This document shows, piece by piece, positions 28,268 through 37,357 of a stretch of 64,000 bases of DNA. The DNA lies in assembly GCA_026388155.1 (NCBI GenBank), contig JAPLKI010000025.1, forward strand, positions 220,931 through 284,930, read 5' to 3'. Positions within the stretch are counted from its first letter, which is position 1, and each line of letters opens with the position of its first letter. The position numbers and the translations under genes are program-made. Below the pieces are notes generated by a model. That model did not search any database. It was not told where the DNA came from and saw nothing but the letters and a program-made list of their open reading frames with translations. The stretch is from Elusimicrobiota bacterium (GTDB lineage: Bacteria; Elusimicrobiota; Elusimicrobia; Elusimicrobiales; UBA9959).

Positions 28268-29767
28268 CTATTTGCTATTTGCTTCTTCTCTATTCGCTGC
28301 CGTTATATAACCTTTAACTTCTCTCACCAGTTTTTCGCCGTAAGATTTGTCTTCCAAACCTTCAGTGTTTATAAAAACGTTTTCGGCGACACAGCGGATA
28401 GCCGCCTCAAGCAGGTAGCGGGCGCTTCTGTAGTCCGATACCACCTGCGGCGACACAGCGCCTGAACAAACTTCAAGCCCCGCCAGGGCCTCCGAGGCCA
28501 GGCGCGCCGTCTTAAGCGGAACCTCGGCCGCGTACTTAAGAGCGGCCTGCATTTTGGCTTTGCGCGCCGGATCGTCCTTTGGCAGTTTCATGGCGGCCAT
28601 GAAAACGTCAAAAGAAGCCGAATCCTCGCTTACGCAATTCTGCAGGGCTGCCTTATATTCGCCAAGCTTCTCCCGCAAGGCGTTCAGGGCGGGTTTCTTG
28701 GCCTCATCCAGCTTTTTCCCGCGCAAAGTTATACCCAGCGCCATCTGGCCGAGAGCGCAGCCCATGGCCCCGCTGACCGCGCCGGCTGACCCCCCGCCCG
28801 GAGTGGGGTCGGTATTCGCCAGCGCATCCACAAAAAGACCGGCGCCCGACTGCCAGGAGCTTAGAAGTTTTAAAAGCTTGGTTTCCAGCACCTGGGTATC
28901 CTTGCTGAAATCTTTGACATTAAGGGTCTCAACGGCATAGTCGGTAATGGCTTCCTGCGTGGTAAGGCCTATAAGTTCTGTGCCGGTAACCGCTATATTT
29001 TTCGGGGCCAGATCCTTGGCCATTTCATCCATTACGCGCTTTATGGAAGTGGTCCGGTAATCCGTAAGCACGGTTGAAATTTGCACCTGTCCCTTGGATT
29101 CCAGAAAAATCTCCTTGGCGCGGAGCGCCGGCAGGCCGCCGCCGGAAGTGCGGATCTTTTTTGCCAGAACTTTGGCAAAATCCATATCGGTAGTGGCGAG
29201 GTTTACATTGAAATTGACTATCTGGTTTCGGGCGCCCACGGCCATTGCGCCGGCGGTGGGATGTATTTTATCAGGTCCGAAATCCGGCACGCGGTCCGGA
29301 TTTTTACCTATTTCTTCGCGCAGGCCCTCAAATTGCCCCTTGCGCACCTTGGCCAGATCCCTCCGGTTTTCATTGCGGGCGGCCCTGTCATAGAGATACA
29401 CCGGTATGTTCAATTCCCTGCCTATGCGCTCACCAGCGATTTCAGCCAGCTTTACGCATTCCTCCAATGTGGAGTCCATGATGGGAATGAACGGCGCCAC
29501 GTCAGTGGCCCCCATTCGGGGGTGTTCGCCTTTGTGATGGTTCAGATCTATCAGGCCCGCGGCCTTTTTAGTAACGGCAAACATAGCATCGGCGGCGGTT
29601 TCAAGAGGGGCTATAAAAGTGAGCACCGTGCGGTTGTGGTCGGCGTCTTTTTCCACGTCCAGCACAAGCACGCCCGGCACGGACCTGGCGGCATCCACGA
29701 TCTGGTTTATCTTCTCAATGTCCCTGCCCTCGCTGAAATTAGGCACACACTCGACGAATTTACCCAT
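28268..29767 (-). CDS. ftcd: Fused glutamate formiminotransferase / formiminotetrahydrofolate cyclodeaminase
   Basis: VECVPNFSEGRD, DHNRTV, HPRMGATDV; C-terminal PTPGGGSAGA cyclodeaminase motif; SD GGAGG. Confidence 0.92.
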   Translation of the reverse strand: MGKFVECVPNFSEGRDIEKINQIVDAARSVPGVLVLDVEKDADHNRTVLTFIAPLETAADAMFAVTKKAAGLIDLNHHKGEHPRMGATDVAPFIPIMDSTLEECVKLAEIAGERIGRELNIPVYLYDRAARNENRRDLAKVRKGQFEGLREEIGKNPDRVPDFGPDKIHPTAGAMAVGARNQIVNFNVNLATTDMDFAKVLAKKIRTSGGGLPALRAKEIFLESKGQVQISTVLTDYRTTSIKRVMDEMAKDLAPKNIAVTGTELIGLTTQEAITDYAVETLNVKDFSKDTQVLETKLLKLLSSWQSGAGLFVDALANTDPTPGGGSAGAVSGAMGCALGQMALGITLRGKKLDEAKKPALNALREKLGEYKAALQNCVSEDSASFDVFMAAMKLPKDDPARKAKMQAALKYAAEVPLKTARLASEALAGLEVCSGAVSPQVVSDYRSARYLLEAAIRCVAENVFINTEGLEDKSYGEKLVREVKGYITAANREEANSK

Positions 29768-29783
29768 ACTGCCTCCAATATCT

Positions 29784-29868
29784 GCCCCGCTCTTTTGGTG
29801 CACAACTCCGGGTTCTATAACCAAAGTGTTGCCCTATAAGCCTTGTGTTGCGGCCAAAAGGGCGGGGC
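29784..29868. mobile_element. MITE-like element family A (85 bp) in the 5' region of ftcd
   Basis: GCCCCGCTCTTTTGG...CCAAAAGGGCGGGGC, flanked by CT/CT. Confidence 0.75.
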
Positions 29869-30051
29869 CTGCGTAGGTACCGGAACAAGTCAGCGCTGAA
29901 GTTTTCCGCTCTCTTCCACTTCAGAACTTCAGCTCTAACTCACAGACAGCCCCAAAAAAGCCGGAAGACGCCTTCATACGGCGCGCTATATAAAACTATA
30001 TTATTAAAATTATACTAATTTTAGGAAACCGGTTAGCCCAGAAAACCGGTT

Positions 30052-31176
30052 TTATCGCGAGCCCTTTAGGAGTTCCCGGTAATAGGCCAGTGTACGCGCG
30101 CCCATTATTTCAACGGTAAATTTTTCCCGCACCAGCGCGACGGAGTTTTTGGAAAGTTCGGCGCGCAGCGCTTCGTTTTTAAGCAGAGTTTCCAGCCGGT
30201 CGGCAAGGGCGCCGGCGTCGCCGGGAGGGAAGAGCAGACCGGTAACTCCGTCCTTTACTATTTCAGAATTCCCGGAAATATCACTGGCGGCGGCCGGAAC
30301 TCCCATGGCCAGCGACTCCCTTATGCTGCCGCTCAGCGCTTCGCCTTTCACAGCCGCGTTCACGCTTACCGAAGCGACAGAAAGCAGACGCTCCACATCG
30401 TTCCGCTGGCCAAGAAAGCGGGCTTTTTCCGGCGGCAGCCCTTCAAGGGTGAAAAGCGCCTTAAGCTCAGGGGAATCCGTGTCGCGGCCCGCAAAAACAA
30501 GTATAAAATCCAGTCCCCTGGAGTAAAGCGTTTTGGCGGCTTTCAGCAATACATGCTGGCCCTTGTGGGCACTGAAGTTGCCTACCAATATTATAACCGG
30601 CAGACCTGGCGGCAGGCACAGTTCTTCCGTTATGGCAGGCGCCGGCGGCTGTGGAAAAAAGAGGGCGGTGTCGGTGCCGCTGTAAATGGTACGCACACGA
30701 TTTTCGGGCAGGCCATAGGCCGTAAGCAGGCCGCGTACCGATTCGGCCACAGCTATAAAACCGTCTATCAGGCTGCTTTTGTACTTTAGTTTGGCAAAGA
30801 AAGTGGTGATAATGGGGTGAGAAACCCTTCGCGTTACCAGGAAGACCGGTTTATGCCGCGCCCGAAGTTTTGCTATAAGGGCCATGGCATGGGCCTTGGG
30901 GTGATGAGCATGCAGGATATCCGGCTGCCTCTCATTTATCAGGCGGGCGAGCGCAAAAGCGGTTATAAGGTCATAGTCGCGGCAGGGCTTAAAATGGACC
31001 ACTTCAAAACCTTCCGCGGCGGCCTTTCGTCCGAGGTCACCGTCAGGGGGACAGGCAAAAATATTAAGCTGCCCGGCTTTGCGCAGTTGGCGCGCCAGGA
31101 AAAGGGCCTGAGCGGCGCCGCCGGTCCAGCCGGAACTCTCCGTTATATGCAGTATTTTTAATTTATGAGCGCTCAT
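30052..31176 (-). CDS. Glycosyltransferase family 4
   Basis: WTGGAAQ, HAHH, KGQHVLL, EALSGSIRESLAMG (E-x7-E). Confidence 0.9.
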   Translation of the reverse strand: MSAHKLKILHITESSGWTGGAAQALFLARQLRKAGQLNIFACPPDGDLGRKAAAEGFEVVHFKPCRDYDLITAFALARLINERQPDILHAHHPKAHAMALIAKLRARHKPVFLVTRRVSHPIITTFFAKLKYKSSLIDGFIAVAESVRGLLTAYGLPENRVRTIYSGTDTALFFPQPPAPAITEELCLPPGLPVIILVGNFSAHKGQHVLLKAAKTLYSRGLDFILVFAGRDTDSPELKALFTLEGLPPEKARFLGQRNDVERLLSVASVSVNAAVKGEALSGSIRESLAMGVPAAASDISGNSEIVKDGVTGLLFPPGDAGALADRLETLLKNEALRAELSKNSVALVREKFTVEIMGARTLAYYRELLKGSR

Positions 31177-31283
31177 TTTCAGTTTGACATGAAAAGGTCC
31201 AATGCACGCGGTAATTATAGTAAATAAGCCGCACCGCGGAAAAAAACCGGCAAAAGACTTTCAGTCCCCAAGAACCCTTATAT

Positions 31284-31368
31284 AAACGAAAAACCCGCTT
31301 TTGGCGGGTTTTCGCTTCCCCTTTTTCGGGGAGTTCACATGTGGCGGTCCCTTTTGAGGTTAACAGCC
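31284..31368 (-). ncRNA. Candidate small RNA, copy A (unnamed)
   Basis: Promoter upstream, three predicted hairpins, terminal CCCGC/GCGGG-U-tract terminator, homologous to 33941-34028. Confidence 0.65.
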
Positions 31369-31374
31369 ATACAT

Positions 31375-31403
31375 AGTATGGCAGATACTGTTTGACTTGT
31401 CAA
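31375..31403 (-). promoter_or_regulatory. Sigma70 promoter TTGACA-17-CATACT
   Basis: -35 at 31403-31398, -10 at 31380-31375. Confidence 0.7.
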
Positions 31404-31411
31404 GGGGTAAA

Positions 31412-31999
31412 CTATAACCAAGCACTGACTACGAACATCAACCCTAAATTATCGGCCGAATCAAGGTTAAAACCACCGCCTTTCATATTAAAAACGTGCT
31501 GCCAGCGCGCTTCCAACGAGGCCCTTGAGCCGAACCAGAACGGATAGCGCACCCCCCCGCCAAGCAATATGCCGGGACTGGCGCCGGAAGCCGAGGCGCA
31601 GGAAACCCCGGCGATTTTAAATGAATTTTGCGTCCACTGATAAAATCCTGCGCCGACAAAGCTGTAATAGGAATGCCCGCCCTTCAGATACGAAGCCCTC
31701 AGATAAGCCACAAGCGAGAATATTTTTATGTTCAGGTCAGGTATTTTTTTGTTCTTATGGCCCGTGGACATTGAACTGTCAAGACCATAGCTCAACAAAT
31801 CATCCAGCGGTTTTTCAAGCGACACTTTAAAAGCCGGGGCAGACCTGAAACCGGCGTTTTTATCTCCCCAACGCCCTCCGAACGGGATATCGGAGCCGTA
31901 ACCTGCGGACAAGCTGTAATCCGACGCCGAAGCGGGAGCCCCGGCGCATGCAGCCGCAAGGCAAAGCAGAAACGATAAAAAGACATATTTAACAGTCAT
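31412..31999 (-). CDS. Outer-membrane beta-barrel domain protein
   Basis: Signal peptide, alternating aromatic/glycine beta strands, GAGFY, C-terminal aromatic. Confidence 0.65.
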   Translation of the reverse strand: MTVKYVFLSFLLCLAAACAGAPASASDYSLSAGYGSDIPFGGRWGDKNAGFRSAPAFKVSLEKPLDDLLSYGLDSSMSTGHKNKKIPDLNIKIFSLVAYLRASYLKGGHSYYSFVGAGFYQWTQNSFKIAGVSCASASGASPGILLGGGVRYPFWFGSRASLEARWQHVFNMKGGGFNLDSADNLGLMFVVSAWL

Positions 32000-32058
32000 C
32001 GAAAAAAGGACCGGGCTGCCGGCGGGCCGGAGACAGAATTAAGTTTGATTTCCAGCCG

Positions 32059-32589
32059 TTATTTTTTATCTGTTTTTTTGATATTCTTTACCAATTCAGG
32101 GTGGTCTTTCCTGAACTGATTCATTTCTTTCTTTTGAATGTCCTTCAGGAACTTCACGGCTTCTTTATATCCCTTTTTTTTCGTTTCCACGGCTTTGTGA
32201 ATTTCCTTACTGGAAGAGGCCTTCATCTGTTCCTTCAGCTGCCTGAGTTCTTCCTGCTGTTTTTTCTTCAGTTCGGCCATAGCCTGGCCCTGCTTCATTT
32301 TCATCTCCTCAATGCTGGCGGGCGCGGCAGGCTTTACAGCGACTTCGGGGACGGCGGCTTTTACATGAGCCGCCACAGTGCCCAACTCCGGAACGCCTGG
32401 ATCGGCCTGAAGCAGATTGGGTTGGAGTTCAGCGGGAGCGGAGACGTCTTTTTGCTCCTGCTTAGGCTCGGGGCGTGCGGGGGCGGCACCGGCCGGCGGC
32501 ACACCGGAAACAGGCAGGACCGGGGGATTCTGAGCGCAAACGCCGGCGCTTAAAAACCCAAGAACCATCAACAATACCGTCTTTTTCAT
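32059..32589 (-). CDS. Secreted hypothetical protein (Pro/Ala linker + Lys/Glu-rich coiled coil)
   Basis: MKKTVLL signal peptide with SD AGGAG. Confidence 0.65.
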   Translation of the reverse strand: MKKTVLLMVLGFLSAGVCAQNPPVLPVSGVPPAGAAPARPEPKQEQKDVSAPAELQPNLLQADPGVPELGTVAAHVKAAVPEVAVKPAAPASIEEMKMKQGQAMAELKKKQQEELRQLKEQMKASSSKEIHKAVETKKKGYKEAVKFLKDIQKKEMNQFRKDHPELVKNIKKTDKK

Positions 32590-32736
32590 TTTATTCTCCT
32601 TGAAAACAACCTGGCTGAACGTTAGAAAGGCTATTAGACTGAAGGAAGAATAGGCTGAAGGCAAAGCAGACTGAAAACTTCAACCTTCAATATAAACGCC
32701 TCTCTTTCTAACAGCCTTCAGTCTAAACAACCTGAT

Positions 32737-33813
32737 TTATTTAGGAACGACCCCCGTGCCTGCCCTGATTTTATCAAGGTTATAAACCCCGTCGCGCGAA
32801 ATAAATCCGGCCCCTCGCATGCCGCTGTCTTTTATAAAAAACGGCGTATCCAGATCTATAAAGTCAAACCCGCCAAGCCCGCCGGCGAACTGCGCGGCTA
32901 CTCCGGAGGCGAGTTCGGTTTCAAGCATTTCGCCCATCATCAGCTTTACGCCTTTTGCTCTGGCCAGCGTCCAGACCTCACGCGCCTTGAGGAAGCCGAA
33001 TTTGGTAAGTTTTATATTTACCGCCGTAACCGCTTTAGCGGCGAGCAGGCGAAAAACTTCATTAACGGAATAAGCGCTTTCGTCGGCGCACACGGGCATT
33101 TTAAGTTTCTTTGAAAGCCAGGAGAGGCCCTCAAGATCATTTTTAGCCACCGGCTGTTCAAAGACCGCCGGCACAATGCCTTTTTTCCCGAGAGCCGCAA
33201 TGAATTTCTGCGCCTCAGCCGCCGTATAGGCGCAGTTGGCGTCAAGGTAAATATCGCAGCCGGGCGCGGATTTATTCACCGCTTCAAGCCGCCGCATATC
33301 CTCATCAAAGTCAATCCCCACTTTTATCTTGAAAATTTTAAAGCCCGCGCGGCGCATTTTCAGCGTGAAGTCACGGGCCTCGGCCGCGCCGCCTATCACC
33401 ACGGTAATGTCGGTTTTAAGGCGGGCCTTGGCGCCGCCAAAAAAGCGCCAGAGGGAAATATCCAGCCTGCGGCAGGCCAGATCGAGCAGAGCTGTCTGCA
33501 CCGCCGCCAAAGCCGCGCGGCGGGAATCCAGTATTTCCTCAAGAGCGCAGAAAAGCTTTAAATAATCAGCCGAATCTTTGCCCTCAAGATACTTTGCGGC
33601 CATATTCAGGCCTTTACGCGTGCTCTCAAGGGTTTCGCCGGTAATATGGCTTGCCACCGCGGCTTCCCCCCAGCCGGTAAAGCCGTCTTTTGACTTGACG
33701 GAAAAAAGCGCGTTTTCAAGACTTTTATGGCTGCCGCTTGAAATGGTAAAGGGAGTAAACAGATCCGCCCGCAGGACGCGTTCGGCACAGCCGGTTATAA
33801 GCGAGGTTTTCAT
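32737..33813 (-). CDS. Dipeptide (L-Ala-D/L-Glu) epimerase, enolase superfamily
   Basis: FTISSG, KIKVG, DAN, EQP, ADES, NIKLTK, DLD. Confidence 0.88.
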   Translation of the reverse strand: MKTSLITGCAERVLRADLFTPFTISSGSHKSLENALFSVKSKDGFTGWGEAAVASHITGETLESTRKGLNMAAKYLEGKDSADYLKLFCALEEILDSRRAALAAVQTALLDLACRRLDISLWRFFGGAKARLKTDITVVIGGAAEARDFTLKMRRAGFKIFKIKVGIDFDEDMRRLEAVNKSAPGCDIYLDANCAYTAAEAQKFIAALGKKGIVPAVFEQPVAKNDLEGLSWLSKKLKMPVCADESAYSVNEVFRLLAAKAVTAVNIKLTKFGFLKAREVWTLARAKGVKLMMGEMLETELASGVAAQFAGGLGGFDFIDLDTPFFIKDSGMRGAGFISRDGVYNLDKIRAGTGVVPK

Positions 33814-33940
33814 ATCAGTTAAGGCTCCAGTTCTTCTTGTACTGCCGTTGAAATATATTTAAATATATAAGACGGGGCAAAAGCAAGGCGGCGGATTTCC
33901 GCAGTTTCTTTCGGCTTGAAATAACGCCTGTCAGTCTGCT

Positions 33941-34028
33941 AAACGAAAAACCCGCTCGTCGCGGGTTTTCGCTTCCCCCATAAGGCAGGGGGACTTGCCA
34001 TTTGGCGGACAGCCTTAGGCTGACGGCC
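33941..34028 (-). ncRNA. Candidate small RNA, copy B (unnamed)
   Basis: Same architecture and conserved blocks as 31284-31368. Confidence 0.65.
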
Positions 34029-34034
34029 AAAAGA

Positions 34035-34063
34035 AGTGTAGCACATGAATCTTGACTTGTCAA
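34035..34063 (-). promoter_or_regulatory. Sigma70 promoter TTGACA-17-TACACT
   Basis: -35 at 34063-34058, -10 at 34040-34035. Confidence 0.72.
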
Positions 34064-34077
34064 GGGGGCACGGACCG

Positions 34078-35337
34078 CTAATTTTTATACCACACCATGT
34101 AGTCATTGCCCTGCGCGGTCAATGTCCAGCCGGGGCCGGGATCCCAGCTCTGCCCGCCAAGCTTGACCGCCAGCTTATTGTCTATTACAGCAGCATAGAG
34201 ATTCTGCGAAGCCTGTATGATGCTTACGCTGCTTGAAGAATTTATTCCCAGGGATTTTCTTATTTTGGCAAGCCTTGTTATTTCGTCTTTCAGTCCCCAG
34301 TCAAAAAAATGAGACCAGAAGATGCACGGGACGCCGGGATGGGTCAAAATATAAGCGTAGCCCTGCATTACCTTGTCGGAAGGGAAGGGCCAGGACTTGG
34401 AAGAACTCGCATTGAGCGTGGTATCATGGTTGTCCACGAAAGTCACGGCGTTGTCCGGCCACCAGCCGATAAGGCCGGACGGGCGGCCGCTTGCGTCTTT
34501 CAGCCGCCAGTATTCGCCGGAAGCGACGGCCTGCTGAAGTATGCCCTTGGTCGTAAAATCAAATACTTTTATTTCGCCGTTGACCGAATCCATCCAGCTG
34601 GCTAAAGCCTGCCTGTGAGTATCGGTATTGTTAAGGTCAAGGTCGTCCCATATTTCGGCCACGGCAAAAACCGGTTTTGTGGCCCTGTTGTACATAAGCA
34701 TGTATTTGGAATCGTAGCCGCGGGCAAAATCGTAGCGCCAGCCGTCGTAGCCGACGGAAGTTCTCAGCCAGGTCATCCATGCGGTTATATCCTTCTGCAC
34801 GGCAGCGTTGGTATGATCCAGGTCACGCGCGAAAGGCACTCCCTTGCCGGTATCCGGCGCACCCCTGCCCTTCCCCCACTCGTCATCGGAGCAAACCGAT
34901 TCCGGACCCCACGCCGGGTCGGTGAAGTCGGCCCAGCCCTTGGTTCCCACACGGTGGTTGATAACGATGTCGGCTATAACCCGCACCCCTTTGGCGCGCA
35001 AAGCGGTTATGGCCGAGGCAAGTTCGACCGAAGAACCGTATTTGGAGTCCTGTATATAAAGCCTTCTGGGCAGATAGCCCTCGTCGCTGGCCGAGTCTGA
35101 GGAAGGCGGCAGCCAAACCAGGTTTATTCCCGCCCGGGACATATCGCCGGCCCTGCTCTCTACCGTGTTCCACCAGGGAGAGGTTTTCCATGAAGTCCAG
35201 TTAAAACCCTGAAGCATGATGGTGGAATCAAATCTTGGGACCGATGAGCCGGGGTTATGAACGGAAGCACAAAAAACTCTGCCGCCTGAAAGAGGCAGCA
35301 GTAATAGCACGGTGGCCAGCAGTTTTTTCACTTTCAT
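34078..35337 (-). CDS. Secreted alpha-amylase, GH13 (plant-type-like)
   Basis: Signal peptide; LQGFNW, DIVINHR, GWRYDFARG, AEIWD, FVDNHD, YILTHPG. Confidence 0.9.
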   Translation of the reverse strand: MKVKKLLATVLLLLPLSGGRVFCASVHNPGSSVPRFDSTIMLQGFNWTSWKTSPWWNTVESRAGDMSRAGINLVWLPPSSDSASDEGYLPRRLYIQDSKYGSSVELASAITALRAKGVRVIADIVINHRVGTKGWADFTDPAWGPESVCSDDEWGKGRGAPDTGKGVPFARDLDHTNAAVQKDITAWMTWLRTSVGYDGWRYDFARGYDSKYMLMYNRATKPVFAVAEIWDDLDLNNTDTHRQALASWMDSVNGEIKVFDFTTKGILQQAVASGEYWRLKDASGRPSGLIGWWPDNAVTFVDNHDTTLNASSSKSWPFPSDKVMQGYAYILTHPGVPCIFWSHFFDWGLKDEITRLAKIRKSLGINSSSSVSIIQASQNLYAAVIDNKLAVKLGGQSWDPGPGWTLTAQGNDYMVWYKN

Positions 35338-35394
35338 AACCCTATATACATTTCTATCACATATAAAGATTTTGTCAAGGGCCAATTGGGCAGG

Positions 35395-35535: not shown

Positions 35536-36720
35536 TTATGCTAATTTTTTTCTCAGGTAATCAGCCCGCAAGGCGTCGCGTTCTGACGGGGAAAGCTGCC
35601 CGCCCCGCACTTTGGCCGATCCCATCGCGGAAAAAGTGCGGGATTTTCCGCTTGCAAGCTGCACATGGGCCGGCTGCATTAAAAGCGTCAGCTGGTTAAG
35701 CGTGTTGAAATCAAGGCCAAGCCCCGCACTTTTGGTTCCCAGACCATCGTCAATAGCCGCAGTCTCGCCGCTAACCGGCCGCTTTTTATCCCAAAAGGGC
35801 GGGGTAAACCTGCAGCCCATGGCAAGCCCCAGTCGCACCAAAGAAACATGCCGCATAAATTCCTGATAGGACATGAGCCTCGCATTCTTCAGCATACCAT
35901 AGGCGCGGTAAACAGCATCCTCCGTTTTCAACCTGTCCCCGCCCTTAAGAAGGGTTTCTCTGGCGGATATCTCCCTGCTTATGAGGTTTTTTATTGCGCG
36001 GTCCAGGCTTCTGCAGAACTCTTCCTCGCTCTTTCCCAGGCAGACGGCGTTTGAGATCTGGTAGAAATCACCCAGAATATAGGTGCCCTCGCCGTAAATG
36101 CCTCTTGCGGTAACGCCAAGACTGGAAAGGCTTTCAAGAGTTTCGGGTATGTATCCAAGGCGGGAAAGCGCGGGCAAATGGGCAAGACACGACACCCTGA
36201 GTCCTGTCCCCGCATTTGCGGGGCTGGCGGTAAGGCAGCCGAATTTATCGCTGCAGGCGTAAGGCAAAATCCTGCCGAGCGAACTTTCAAGTTTTTCCGC
36301 CGCGGCGAAAGCTTCTTCTATTGCAAGGCCGGCGACGATGCTTTGCACGCGCAGATGATCTTCTTCATTTACCATCACGGAAAGGCTTTCGTCGCCGCTG
36401 ATCACAACGCCCGCGGGCCGGATCATGGCGGACAGGGCATGCGAAATATGGTGGCGTTCCGCCAGAATTTGTTTTTCGAATGGAGAAAGCGTTTCGGTTT
36501 TAAGGTAACATGACCCCGGAAAAAAACCGCAGGCTTTTACAGCCTTGAACGCCAGGTCACGCGCGGAAAGCAGGGAGGAGGCGTGGGCGCGGTGCGGAAA
36601 CGGAAAACCGGAAAAGTTGCGCGCGAAGCGCACCCGGGTTGAAAATATCATTTCCGGGCAGCTGCCGCGCGAATTCGCCCAGTTAACGGCAGACCCGAAA
36701 GAGTCGGTTATTTCCGGCAT
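35536..36720 (-). CDS. mcsB: Protein arginine kinase McsB-like (ATP:guanido phosphotransferase) with two repeat-derived insertions
   Basis: STRVRFARN, ERHHIS, VMVNEEDHLRVQ, GTGLRVS, RGIYGEG, YQISN; adjacent to mcsA. Confidence 0.9.
   Translation of the reverse strand: MPEITDSFGSAVNWANSRGSCPEMIFSTRVRFARNFSGFPFPHRAHASSLLSARDLAFKAVKACGFFPGSCYLKTETLSPFEKQILAERHHISHALSAMIRPAGVVISGDESLSVMVNEEDHLRVQSIVAGLAIEEAFAAAEKLESSLGRILPYACSDKFGCLTASPANAGTGLRVSCLAHLPALSRLGYIPETLESLSSLGVTARGIYGEGTYILGDFYQISNAVCLGKSEEEFCRSLDRAIKNLISREISARETLLKGGDRLKTEDAVYRAYGMLKNARLMSYQEFMRHVSLVRLGLAMGCRFTPPFWDKKRPVSGETAAIDDGLGTKSAGLGLDFNTLNQLTLLMQPAHVQLASGKSRTFSAMGSAKVRGGQLSPSERDALRADYLRKKLA
35602..35644. repeat. Short family A element inside mcsB
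   Basis: GCCCCGCACTTTGG...AAAAGTGCGGG; read as SRTFSAMGSAKVRGG. Confidence 0.7.
35721..35805. mobile_element. 85-bp family A element inside mcsB
   Basis: GCCCCGCACTTTTGG...CCAAAAGGGCGGGGT, flanked by AA/AA; frame preserved. Confidence 0.78.
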
Positions 36721-36727
36721 TTATTCG

Positions 36728-37357
36728 CTATCCTAATTTCTTTATCTGGTCGCGCAGCCGGGCGGCTGTTTCAAAATCTTCCCTGTCAACGGCCGCTTTG
36801 AGCTCGGCGTTAAGCCCTTTAAGCCGGCGCGCGGTTTGTGCTTTGCGTTCCCGCTTCCCCGTTGCCGCACTGTCGCATTTTTCAAAGCTCTTTGCAGCCC
36901 GCGTCGCATAAACCTTTCCGGTATGCAGGCAGGAACCGTACGCGCGGGTAAGAAGCTCGCTTAACTGCGCGTCGAAGCTCACGTAGCACACGGAGCAGCC
37001 GAGTTTGCCCGTTTCCTTGAACTCTCTGTAGGTTAAAGCGCAGGCAGGACAATGCAGGGCCTTTTTCCCCGCCGGCAGGAATTCCTTGAAACAGCCGTTT
37101 ATGCCGCCTAATATATCCGGTATGTTCAAGGAACCGCTTTCATAGCCGGCGGGTACCGCCCCGCCCTTTTGGCCCGGAAAGCTGGGCTTATCACCCGACC
37201 TGTAATCTCCCACGCCGGTAGATTGTTCCAAAAGAGCGGGGCCCGCCCCTTTTTTGGCGGCGCATACGGCGCACAAATGGGCGTCGGTAACCTTGTTGTT
37301 TACCGCCATTTTAAGAAAAACAACGGCCTCGCGCCGGCCGCAATCCATGCAAAGCAT
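36728..37357 (-). CDS. mcsA: McsA-like protein (CxxC motifs + UvrB/C motif)
   Basis: MLCMDC, HLCAVCA, CPAC, GKLGCSVCY, EDFETAARLRDQIK. Confidence 0.9.
   Translation of the reverse strand: MLCMDCGRREAVVFLKMAVNNKVTDAHLCAVCAAKKGAGPALLEQSTGVGDYRSGDKPSFPGQKGGAVPAGYESGSLNIPDILGGINGCFKEFLPAGKKALHCPACALTYREFKETGKLGCSVCYVSFDAQLSELLTRAYGSCLHTGKVYATRAAKSFEKCDSAATGKRERKAQTARRLKGLNAELKAAVDREDFETAARLRDQIKKLG
37158..37242. mobile_element. 85-bp family A element inside mcsA
   Basis: GCCCCGCCCTTTTGG...CCAAAAGAGCGGGGC, flanked by CC/CC; read as GPALLEQ...GQKGGA. Confidence 0.78.

Follow-up and report, generated by a model that had tools for sequence, protein, structure and literature searches.

A predicted family of stand-alone small RNA genes in two orders of the class Elusimicrobia

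A stretch of 64,000 nucleotides (nt) from an Elusimicrobiota bacterium (assembly GCA_026388155.1, contig JAPLKI010000025.1, positions 220,931 to 284,930; called the window below) carries two similar units, A and B, on its minus strand. The question they raise is whether they are leaders of the genes that follow, terminators of the genes that precede, or genes for small RNAs (sRNAs) in their own right. An initial annotation, made from the sequence alone, had described them as homologous promoter-to-terminator units, and a direct check of the sequence bore out the places, the boxes and the shared sequence, both units lying on the minus strand. Comparison across genomes identifies A and B as predicted members of an undescribed family of stand-alone sRNA genes that is two orders wide and is duplicated in the host genus. 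The family has a promoter, a fold and a terminator-type end of its own, is independent of its neighbours and is inherited mostly as a single copy in two orders.

Promoter, fold and terminator-type end

A and B have 66 identical positions over 85 and 88 nt, and they find each other by blastn with E = 1.8e-11 in the host genome (G000; 3.36 Mb, 96.9% complete), in which neither blastn nor a covariance model finds a third copy. The homology extends from bases before the -35 box to the U-tract. Coordinates of all features are collected in Table 1.

The two promoters are the best sigma-70-type sites between 29800 and 35600, each matching the consensus at 10 of 12 positions. Both have a 17-nt spacer, a TG ahead of the -10 box and a GGC 6 nt after it, just as the initial annotation had it (TTGACA-17 bp-(C/T)A(T/C)ACT, 6 nt, GGC). 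A promoter is present at 66 of 68 loci in the order of the host (the first order), which were found with an RNA-only model (R1) that does not contain the promoter. Because the pattern search in the second order of the class required a -35 box, promoters there do not count as independent evidence.

A and B each fold into three hairpins, P1 to P3 (z = -4.1 and -4.6), and none of 200 shuffled sequences is as stable. The family fold consists of a 5' hairpin, in which a defect (mostly C.C) is conserved, an open A-rich linker of about 9 nt, a GC hairpin and a 12-bp terminator. Three hairpins are present in 81 of 83 distinct sequences and span 75-94 nt; the linker measures 7-10 nt in 69 of the 81, and the gap between P2 and P3 is 0-2 nt in 77. 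An internal defect lies a few pairs above the base of P1 in 80 of the 81 sequences (C.C in 47, U.C in 8), whereas P2 and P3 have internal defects in only 20 and 16. The linker is 96% unpaired and among the least conserved parts, and one genus has four loci in which it has drifted to almost nothing but A, unlike a seed.

The first paired base lies 4-8 nt past the -10 box, and the 5' end is therefore likely buried in P1. At the other end, pairs outside the A-U run of P3 covary, and the first U-run is therefore likely not where the RNA stops. P3 is followed by a modest U-tract, with 3-4 U in 8 nt in 56 of the 81 sequences, and the core of the hairpin is like that of common terminators in these genomes. 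Transcription would start with the first pair of P1 or just ahead of it and would end after P3, and the strong promoter would yield a stable RNA of about 85 nt; with both ends within stems, this RNA would resist exonucleases.

Changes on both sides of pairs support the fold. In 46 first-order sequences, pairing is seen in 94.1% of cells, a share that drops to 52% or less if partners are slid, and two-sided change occurs in 14 of 24 pairs; these are pair counts, not a phylogeny-corrected test, from an alignment fitted to the model and uncorrected for the relatedness of the sequences. An earlier, unfitted alignment gives 89.2% paired cells and 9 of 24 pairs with two-sided change. Both P1 and P2 covary in the 46 sequences, and an unfitted RNAalifold prediction from 15 second-order sequences returns the same fold, with two-sided change in 12 of 28 pairs. 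The idea that conserved stems with differing loops reflect structural selection is thus upheld. Most of what had been called conserved linker is paired: CCGCC forms the 3' side of P1 and GCGAAAA the 5' side of the terminator stem, and the actual single-stranded linker of 10 nt differs between A and B. In line with the initial annotation, no peptide is conserved: an ATG occurs within nt 16-45 of 29 of the 83 sequences, where 11 of the frames stop at once and the others have scattered lengths.

Table 1. Positions of the two RNA units and their predicted parts in the window
Feature	Position	Strand	Remarks
Copy A, predicted RNA of 85 nt	31284..31368	-	ancestral position of the family; three-hairpin fold; 82.5 bits with covariance model
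Copy A, 12-bp palindrome TTGAC-NN-GTCAA with -35 box 31398-31403	31392..31403	-	candidate operator; -35 box starts at 31403
Copy A, -10 box CATACT with TG extension	31375..31380	-	promoter scoring; box ends at 31375
Copy A, hairpin P1	31343..31368	-	starts at predicted +1; 3 pairs, U.C mismatch (C.C in most homologs), variable upper stem
Copy A, single-stranded purine-rich linker, 10 nt	31333..31342	-	only long open stretch
Copy A, hairpin P2, UCCCC/GGGGA	31317..31332	-	covariation, pairing probabilities
Copy A, hairpin P3, 12-bp terminator-type stem	31287..31315	-	G-C clamp outside A-U run; U-tract 31284-31286 follows
TATAAT box of downstream glycosyltransferase gene	31214..31219	-	argues against a leader role
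Copy B, predicted RNA of 88 nt	33941..34028	-	probable genus-level duplicate; 66.8 bits with covariance model
Copy B, palindrome TTGAC-NN-GTCAA with -35 box 34058-34063	34052..34063	-	sequence and promoter scoring; -35 box starts at 34063
Copy B, -10 box TACACT with TG extension	34035..34040	-	promoter scoring; box ends at 34035
Copy B, hairpin P1	34004-34028	-	fold
Copy B, linker	33994-34003	-	fold
Copy B, hairpin P2	33974-33993	-	fold
Copy B, hairpin P3	33944-33972	-	fold

Distribution and copy history

An exact-pattern scan of all species genomes returned 40 records, of which 36 are labelled Elusimicrobia, Elusimicrobiota, Elusimicrobiales or Elusimicrobiaceae and 4 only 'bacterium'. As the initial annotation had suggested, a covariance model was built and related genomes were searched, which led to a family in two orders. 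The RNA-only covariance model matches in 64 of 80 genomes of the host family (60 above 45 bits), and after removal of a false match in G018, 63 genomes hold genuine copies; that of G088 is cut by a contig end, and those of G030 and G023 score low yet have promoter and fold. The sister family f3 has the RNA in both of its genomes (2/2). In the second order, a refined model that contains the promoter scores 46-54 bits in G207, G213 and G247, and blastn together with a pattern search finds 28 promoter-bearing copies in 27 of 101 genomes. Details common to both orders are the GG/CC base of P1, a linker ending in RAC, the UCC/GGA base of P2 and the clamped A-U run in P3. From the model scores and these details, the RNAs of the two orders are likely, if not certainly, homologous.

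The large model searches scored only 24-30 candidates per genome, and distant copies may be missed. With such limited sensitivity, 38 genomes of other orders gave nothing convincing, families of other classes in a 151-genome sample of the phylum gave no match, and viral contigs gave 0 matches with two patterns. A metagenome scan gave 35 matches, all on contigs above 1.1 kb and thus without transcript ends.

A number of matches were inspected, that in G378 not being among them. In the sister family f2 (34 of 74 genomes, at most 38.7 bits), the 15 inspected loci are terminators or a tRNA 3' end, without the promoter of the family; the matches in G018, G012, G010, G006 and G046 are other promoters or terminators, and those in G228, G261 and G338 were also rejected. 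Separately, locus L214 (G111) of family f2 has a promoter, three short hairpins and a terminator and is a possible, very diverged member. L217 and L218 (G228 and G261, at about 1500-1610) show a conserved short promoter-to-terminator unit of different fold in another order.

The RNA gene is single-copy in most genomes. Two copies were seen only in the three genomes of the host genus, in G020 (where the second copy lacks a promoter) and in G292, and 'sibling sRNAs', the term used initially, does not describe the family in general. Copy A is at the ancestral position, and in the host genus a glycosyltransferase gene has been inserted after it. Copy B likely arose by duplication within the genus, because it follows the amylase gene in all three genomes and the unusual 3' end of A is also found in B of G000 and G001. 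Its linker and loops have diverged, and in G002 its promoter is deleted; the promoter-less copies in G002 and G020 keep P2 and P3. Copy B likely serves dosage or is a diverging spare.

The RNA matches no known family, in keeping with the initial annotation, which had proposed the Rfam scan. Rfam 15 gives 0 matches in the window at gathering thresholds (the best below threshold reaches 23.5 of 60 bits, E 0.29) and 0 in 15 diverse homolog loci. As both RNase P RNA and tmRNA are present, the RNA is neither. No description was found in the literature on noncoding RNA of Elusimicrobia or Elusimicrobiota; the coverage takes in the main text of PMC11109978, which makes no mention of Elusimicrobia, and stops short of its supplement, which possibly bears on novelty. 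In three lake metatranscriptome runs of one study, with contigs of at least 151 nt, 7 pieces lie on neighbouring genes and 0 on A or B; an RNA of 85 nt would likely escape such data.

Neighbouring genes and a palindrome over the -35 box

In the window, an alpha-amylase gene lies upstream of B, genes for an enolase-superfamily enzyme and two secreted-looking proteins lie between the copies, and a glycosyltransferase gene and ftcD (glutamate formiminotransferase) follow A. The initial annotation had called the flanking genes unrelated; the neighbours of A are indeed functionally unrelated, but the locus of A is the ancestral one in the family. By pattern, 45 of 68 first-order loci (46 if L039 is counted) have ftcD as the next gene, an arrangement that could point to a riboswitch or attenuator gating read-through into ftcD or another downstream gene, as could the modest U-tract. 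We regard this reading as largely refuted and very improbable. A separate TATAAT stands between RNA and ftcD at 39 of the 45 loci, and that of the glycosyltransferase gene in the window, placed near 31215 by the initial annotation, is where it had been predicted. The next gene is convergent at 6 first-order loci, the RNA is divergent from ftcD in G030 and G023, and in the second order the contexts, which differ from family to family, have no relation to ftcD. Loss of P3 from the fold costs 5.5-22.6 kcal/mol (median 15.9) and brings out no shared antiterminator, and neither loops nor junctions are conserved as those of an aptamer would be. Since the neighbours vary, the downstream TATAAT is separate and no antiterminator is shared, a riboswitch is unlikely; homologs do not always stand 5' of one gene class, and the preference for a stand-alone RNA gene voiced in the initial annotation is supported. 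The features found (own promoter and terminator, compensatory structure, no conserved coding frame) would be those of a stand-alone sRNA, and the marks of a riboswitch were not seen.

It is also improbable, in our view, that the RNA itself matters little and that the unit serves to terminate the upstream operon, its promoter being incidental, or to insulate through transcription as such. The promoter in the first order starts only about 10-130 nt from the upstream stop codon, the promoter-less copies retain P2 and P3, and the core of P3 is of the ordinary terminator type, all of which would fit such a role. The covariation of P1 and P2, however, would not, nor would the persistence of an intact gene beside a divergent upstream gene in G030, G023, G207 and G356. 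In G020, moreover, the promoter-less remnant stays before ftcD and the intact copy is found elsewhere, upstream of another gene. Promoter and fold are thus kept beside convergent, divergent or unrelated genes.

The -35 box is one half of a palindrome, TTGAC-NN-GTCAA, a feature missed by the initial annotation. The palindrome covers the -35 box in 51 of 80 promoter-bearing homologs, with a one-base variant in 6 more, and is mostly absent from the second order. G000 has 13 such sites where 2.8 are expected; a form with a 3-nt spacer is also enriched (12 sites) but has no tie to such promoters. Most of the 13 lie on or beside promoters, namely those of secreted-looking proteins, of other candidate RNAs and of two c-di-GMP-I riboswitch leaders. 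The palindrome is likely an operator, and in Elusimicrobiales the RNA gene is likely controlled by a regulator bound over the -35 box.

Several further loci of G000 have the same promoter type. Two of them, at C7:15824 (+, about 390 nt; L241) and C13:95691 (+, about 250 nt; L242), encode long, adenine-poor candidate RNAs (8-10% A) with near-identical terminators and no Rfam match. At C17:17174 (-; L243), a candidate small RNA of about 130 nt is G/U-rich, has a terminator hairpin and likewise lacks an Rfam match; a similar start is seen in G026 (L026). c-di-GMP-I riboswitches follow palindrome-flanked promoters at C2:8821 (-; L240) and C5:32527 (+; L239), with 59.9 and 59.8 bits, and the former has a long hairpin with a G/U-rich interior in front. 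An intergenic motif of about 30-50 nt without an Rfam match occurs three times in the same genome (C4:86315, C7:40320 and C21:3824; L245-L247). L212 (G012) and L215 (G010), at about 1500-1570, have similar promoters with an inverted repeat, which we take to resemble the CIRCE element, ahead of small heat-shock-like genes.

As to the surrounding genes, the order amylase, enolase-superfamily enzyme, secreted proteins, RNA and ftcD (28268-35385 in the window) is conserved in the host family. The open reading frames (ORFs) at 31412-31999 and 32059-32589 have an exported look and no Pfam match. At 35536-37357 (-), an ATP:guanido phosphotransferase gene lies beside that of a cysteine-rich protein, presumably a pair like mcsB/mcsA, with no ctsR-like ORF directly adjacent.

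Possible modes of action

We favour a reading in which the RNA acts in trans, as a protein decoy recognised by shape or as the RNA of a small ribonucleoprotein (RNP), and give it a probability of roughly 50%. Recognition by a protein is inferred because both the geometry and the helix defect are kept. What the partner would recognise is the distortion at the base of P1, the open, A-rich linker and the stack of helices P2 and P3, and loops and linker would be free to drift, as expected if geometry rather than base pairing is read. Of the functions guessed at in the initial annotation, protein binding would still be the best, base pairing appears weakened and an antitoxin-like role seems to fall away, with no overlapping or conserved partner ORF.

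A number of observations weigh against recognition of the RNA by a protein. No partner was identified: Hfq (PF17209), ProQ (PF04352), CsrA (PF02599) and Ro60 (PF05731) were each found in 0 of 5 genomes, and the M-domain of Ffh in 0 of 201 Elusimicrobiota genomes. G000 encodes one RNA recognition motif (RRM) protein, but RRM occurs in 207 of 393 genomes of the class, far more widely than the RNA, and the protein was not found in the near-complete RNA carriers G017 and G029 nor, by family tally, in G207 and G215. Sponges typically have repeated sites, where this RNA has a single linker, and the P1 defect is more varied in the second order, with the strict C.C pattern in about 9 of 28. Finally, the gene is gone from its usual locus in the near-complete genomes G063 and G006 and was not found by the RNA-only covariance model in three g11 genomes, and the RNA is thus either dispensable or too diverged in these.

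In its layout, the family is most like the protein-titrating RNAs CsrB/RsmYZ, 6S RNA and Y RNA, which also have a strong promoter and terminator of their own, favour shape over sequence and lack a link to neighbours; yet it fails the defining test of each family considered. CsrB/RsmYZ are defined by repeated GGA loops, 6S RNA by a hairpin with a central bubble and Y RNA by paired 5' and 3' ends. Here, repeated GGA loops and a long, centrally bubbled hairpin are absent, the 6S model gives no match, and the two ends are unpaired with each other; CsrA and Ro60 are among the proteins not found in the five genomes. An Hfq- or ProQ-dependent sRNA was rejected on the Pfam results for the same five genomes.

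A regulator that base-pairs without Hfq is a possible but doubtful alternative. In this case the linker, and perhaps an opened UCCCC arm of P2, would pair with ribosome-binding sites as do RsaE/RoxS, which are C-rich sRNAs, and sX13. Consistent with this, a C-run follows the linker in almost all homologs, the linker UG(U/A)GAAC is common in the first order, and linker and loops are where A and B differ most, as they might if their targets differ. However, the C-run is locked in a stem (mean unpaired probability 0.09, opening cost 9-10 kcal/mol) and the linker is poorly conserved. Against the mRNAs of G000, the one genome used for target prediction, there is no signal above controls: full-length binding below -10 kcal/mol is predicted at 25 (A) and 18 (B) of 1220 start regions versus 13 of 600 coding windows for either RNA. 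One start-region duplex (-22.9 kcal/mol) goes slightly beyond the best of 12 shuffles (-22.4 kcal/mol), and a stronger one (-24.5 kcal/mol) lies at the start of an ORF of doubtful reality. No accessible anti-Shine-Dalgarno motif is conserved, and pairing with four other RNAs of the same promoter type is weaker than with shuffles. The C-rich anti-Shine-Dalgarno class of RsaE/RoxS and sX13 was therefore rejected: the single-stranded C-rich motif it requires is missing, and start regions are not enriched. As described in PMC3771888, sX13 of Xanthomonas is alike in its stand-alone gene, three stem-loops, C-run and lack of need for Hfq, but its C-rich (4C) motifs sit in apical loops and pair with G-rich mRNA sites, whereas here a covarying stem takes up the C-run, and the loops, rich in A, are variable.

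Antisense systems fit no better. RNAI of ColE1-type plasmids (RF00106) is similarly short, with three hairpins and a strong promoter, and its model gives 17.7 and 17.1 bits at the two copies; these scores are far below the 47-bit cut-off (E 4.7 and 6.3), and the similarity is driven by the terminator. RNAI is a plasmid antisense RNA, while A and B lie in the chromosome among housekeeping genes, and neither an antisense primer RNA nor an origin was seen. A type I antitoxin or RNAI-type antisense RNA was rejected, as no opposite-strand or overlapping partner ORF is conserved and the longest exact match of the RNA elsewhere in G000, the sister copy aside, is 16 nt. The FopS sRNAs of Bacteroides and their RRM protein RbpB, as described in PMC11697453, are alike in being paralogous sRNAs of bacteria without Hfq, and G000 does have its single RRM protein. 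FopS sRNAs, however, comprise a single-stranded 5' seed and one terminator, exist in 14 copies and repress translation, whereas here we find a 5' hairpin, 1-2 copies and an RRM protein that does not track the RNA.

The RNA could also be of the housekeeping type and stand in for a lost or unrecognised function, such as that of signal recognition particle (SRP) RNA (Alu-like binding to the ribosome) or 6S RNA (binding to RNA polymerase); we consider this unlikely. Its single copy, strong promoter and inheritance over two orders in variable contexts would agree with such a role. The genomic background would as well: no 6S or SRP RNA is recognised by Rfam in G000, and the Ffh M-domain is missing from all 201 phylum genomes searched. 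A motif scan for a divergent SRP RNA gave nothing convincing, and a large SRP RNA was found in 0 of 151 Elusimicrobiota genomes. The results for Ffh and SRP RNA extend published remarks that few Elusimicrobia have SRP, whose loss is described in PMC4779614 and PMC7987157. In contrast to what this role would predict, the RNA was not found in most families of the phylum that lack Ffh, is missing at its locus in near-complete genomes and lacks the long, centrally bubbled hairpin of 6S RNA. The Alu fold is defined by loop-loop complementarity of its two hairpins; here, neither loop-loop nor linker-loop pairing is above chance, the runs being no longer than in mismatched pairs. With no helix-8/Ffh match either, SRP RNA and its Alu domain were rejected. 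In its broadest form, the proposal would make the RNA an ancient, lineage-wide housekeeping RNP RNA that binds the ribosome, RNA polymerase or a new protein family by the shape of its gapped helix and replaces part of a lost core function. This is a long shot; if true, it would mean a new type of RNP in a phylum without Ffh and SRP, in a host where Hfq, CsrA, ProQ, Ro60 and a recognisable 6S RNA were not found.

For recognition of the RNA by a protein, the family provides material for pull-downs and structures: about 95 natural variants, a supported fold, a conserved helix defect, natural alleles that have lost the promoter and a diverged duplicate. A practical limit is that the carriers found are metagenome-assembled and that the sampled genomes of the small-genome sister family f2 yielded no convincing copy. 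Structured sRNA families that span orders are uncommon outside a few well-studied phyla, and this RNA lives where no textbook sRNA partner was found and SRP is lost. Discovery of its partner would likely expose an RNA-protein system outside those of Hfq, CsrA, ProQ and Ro60.

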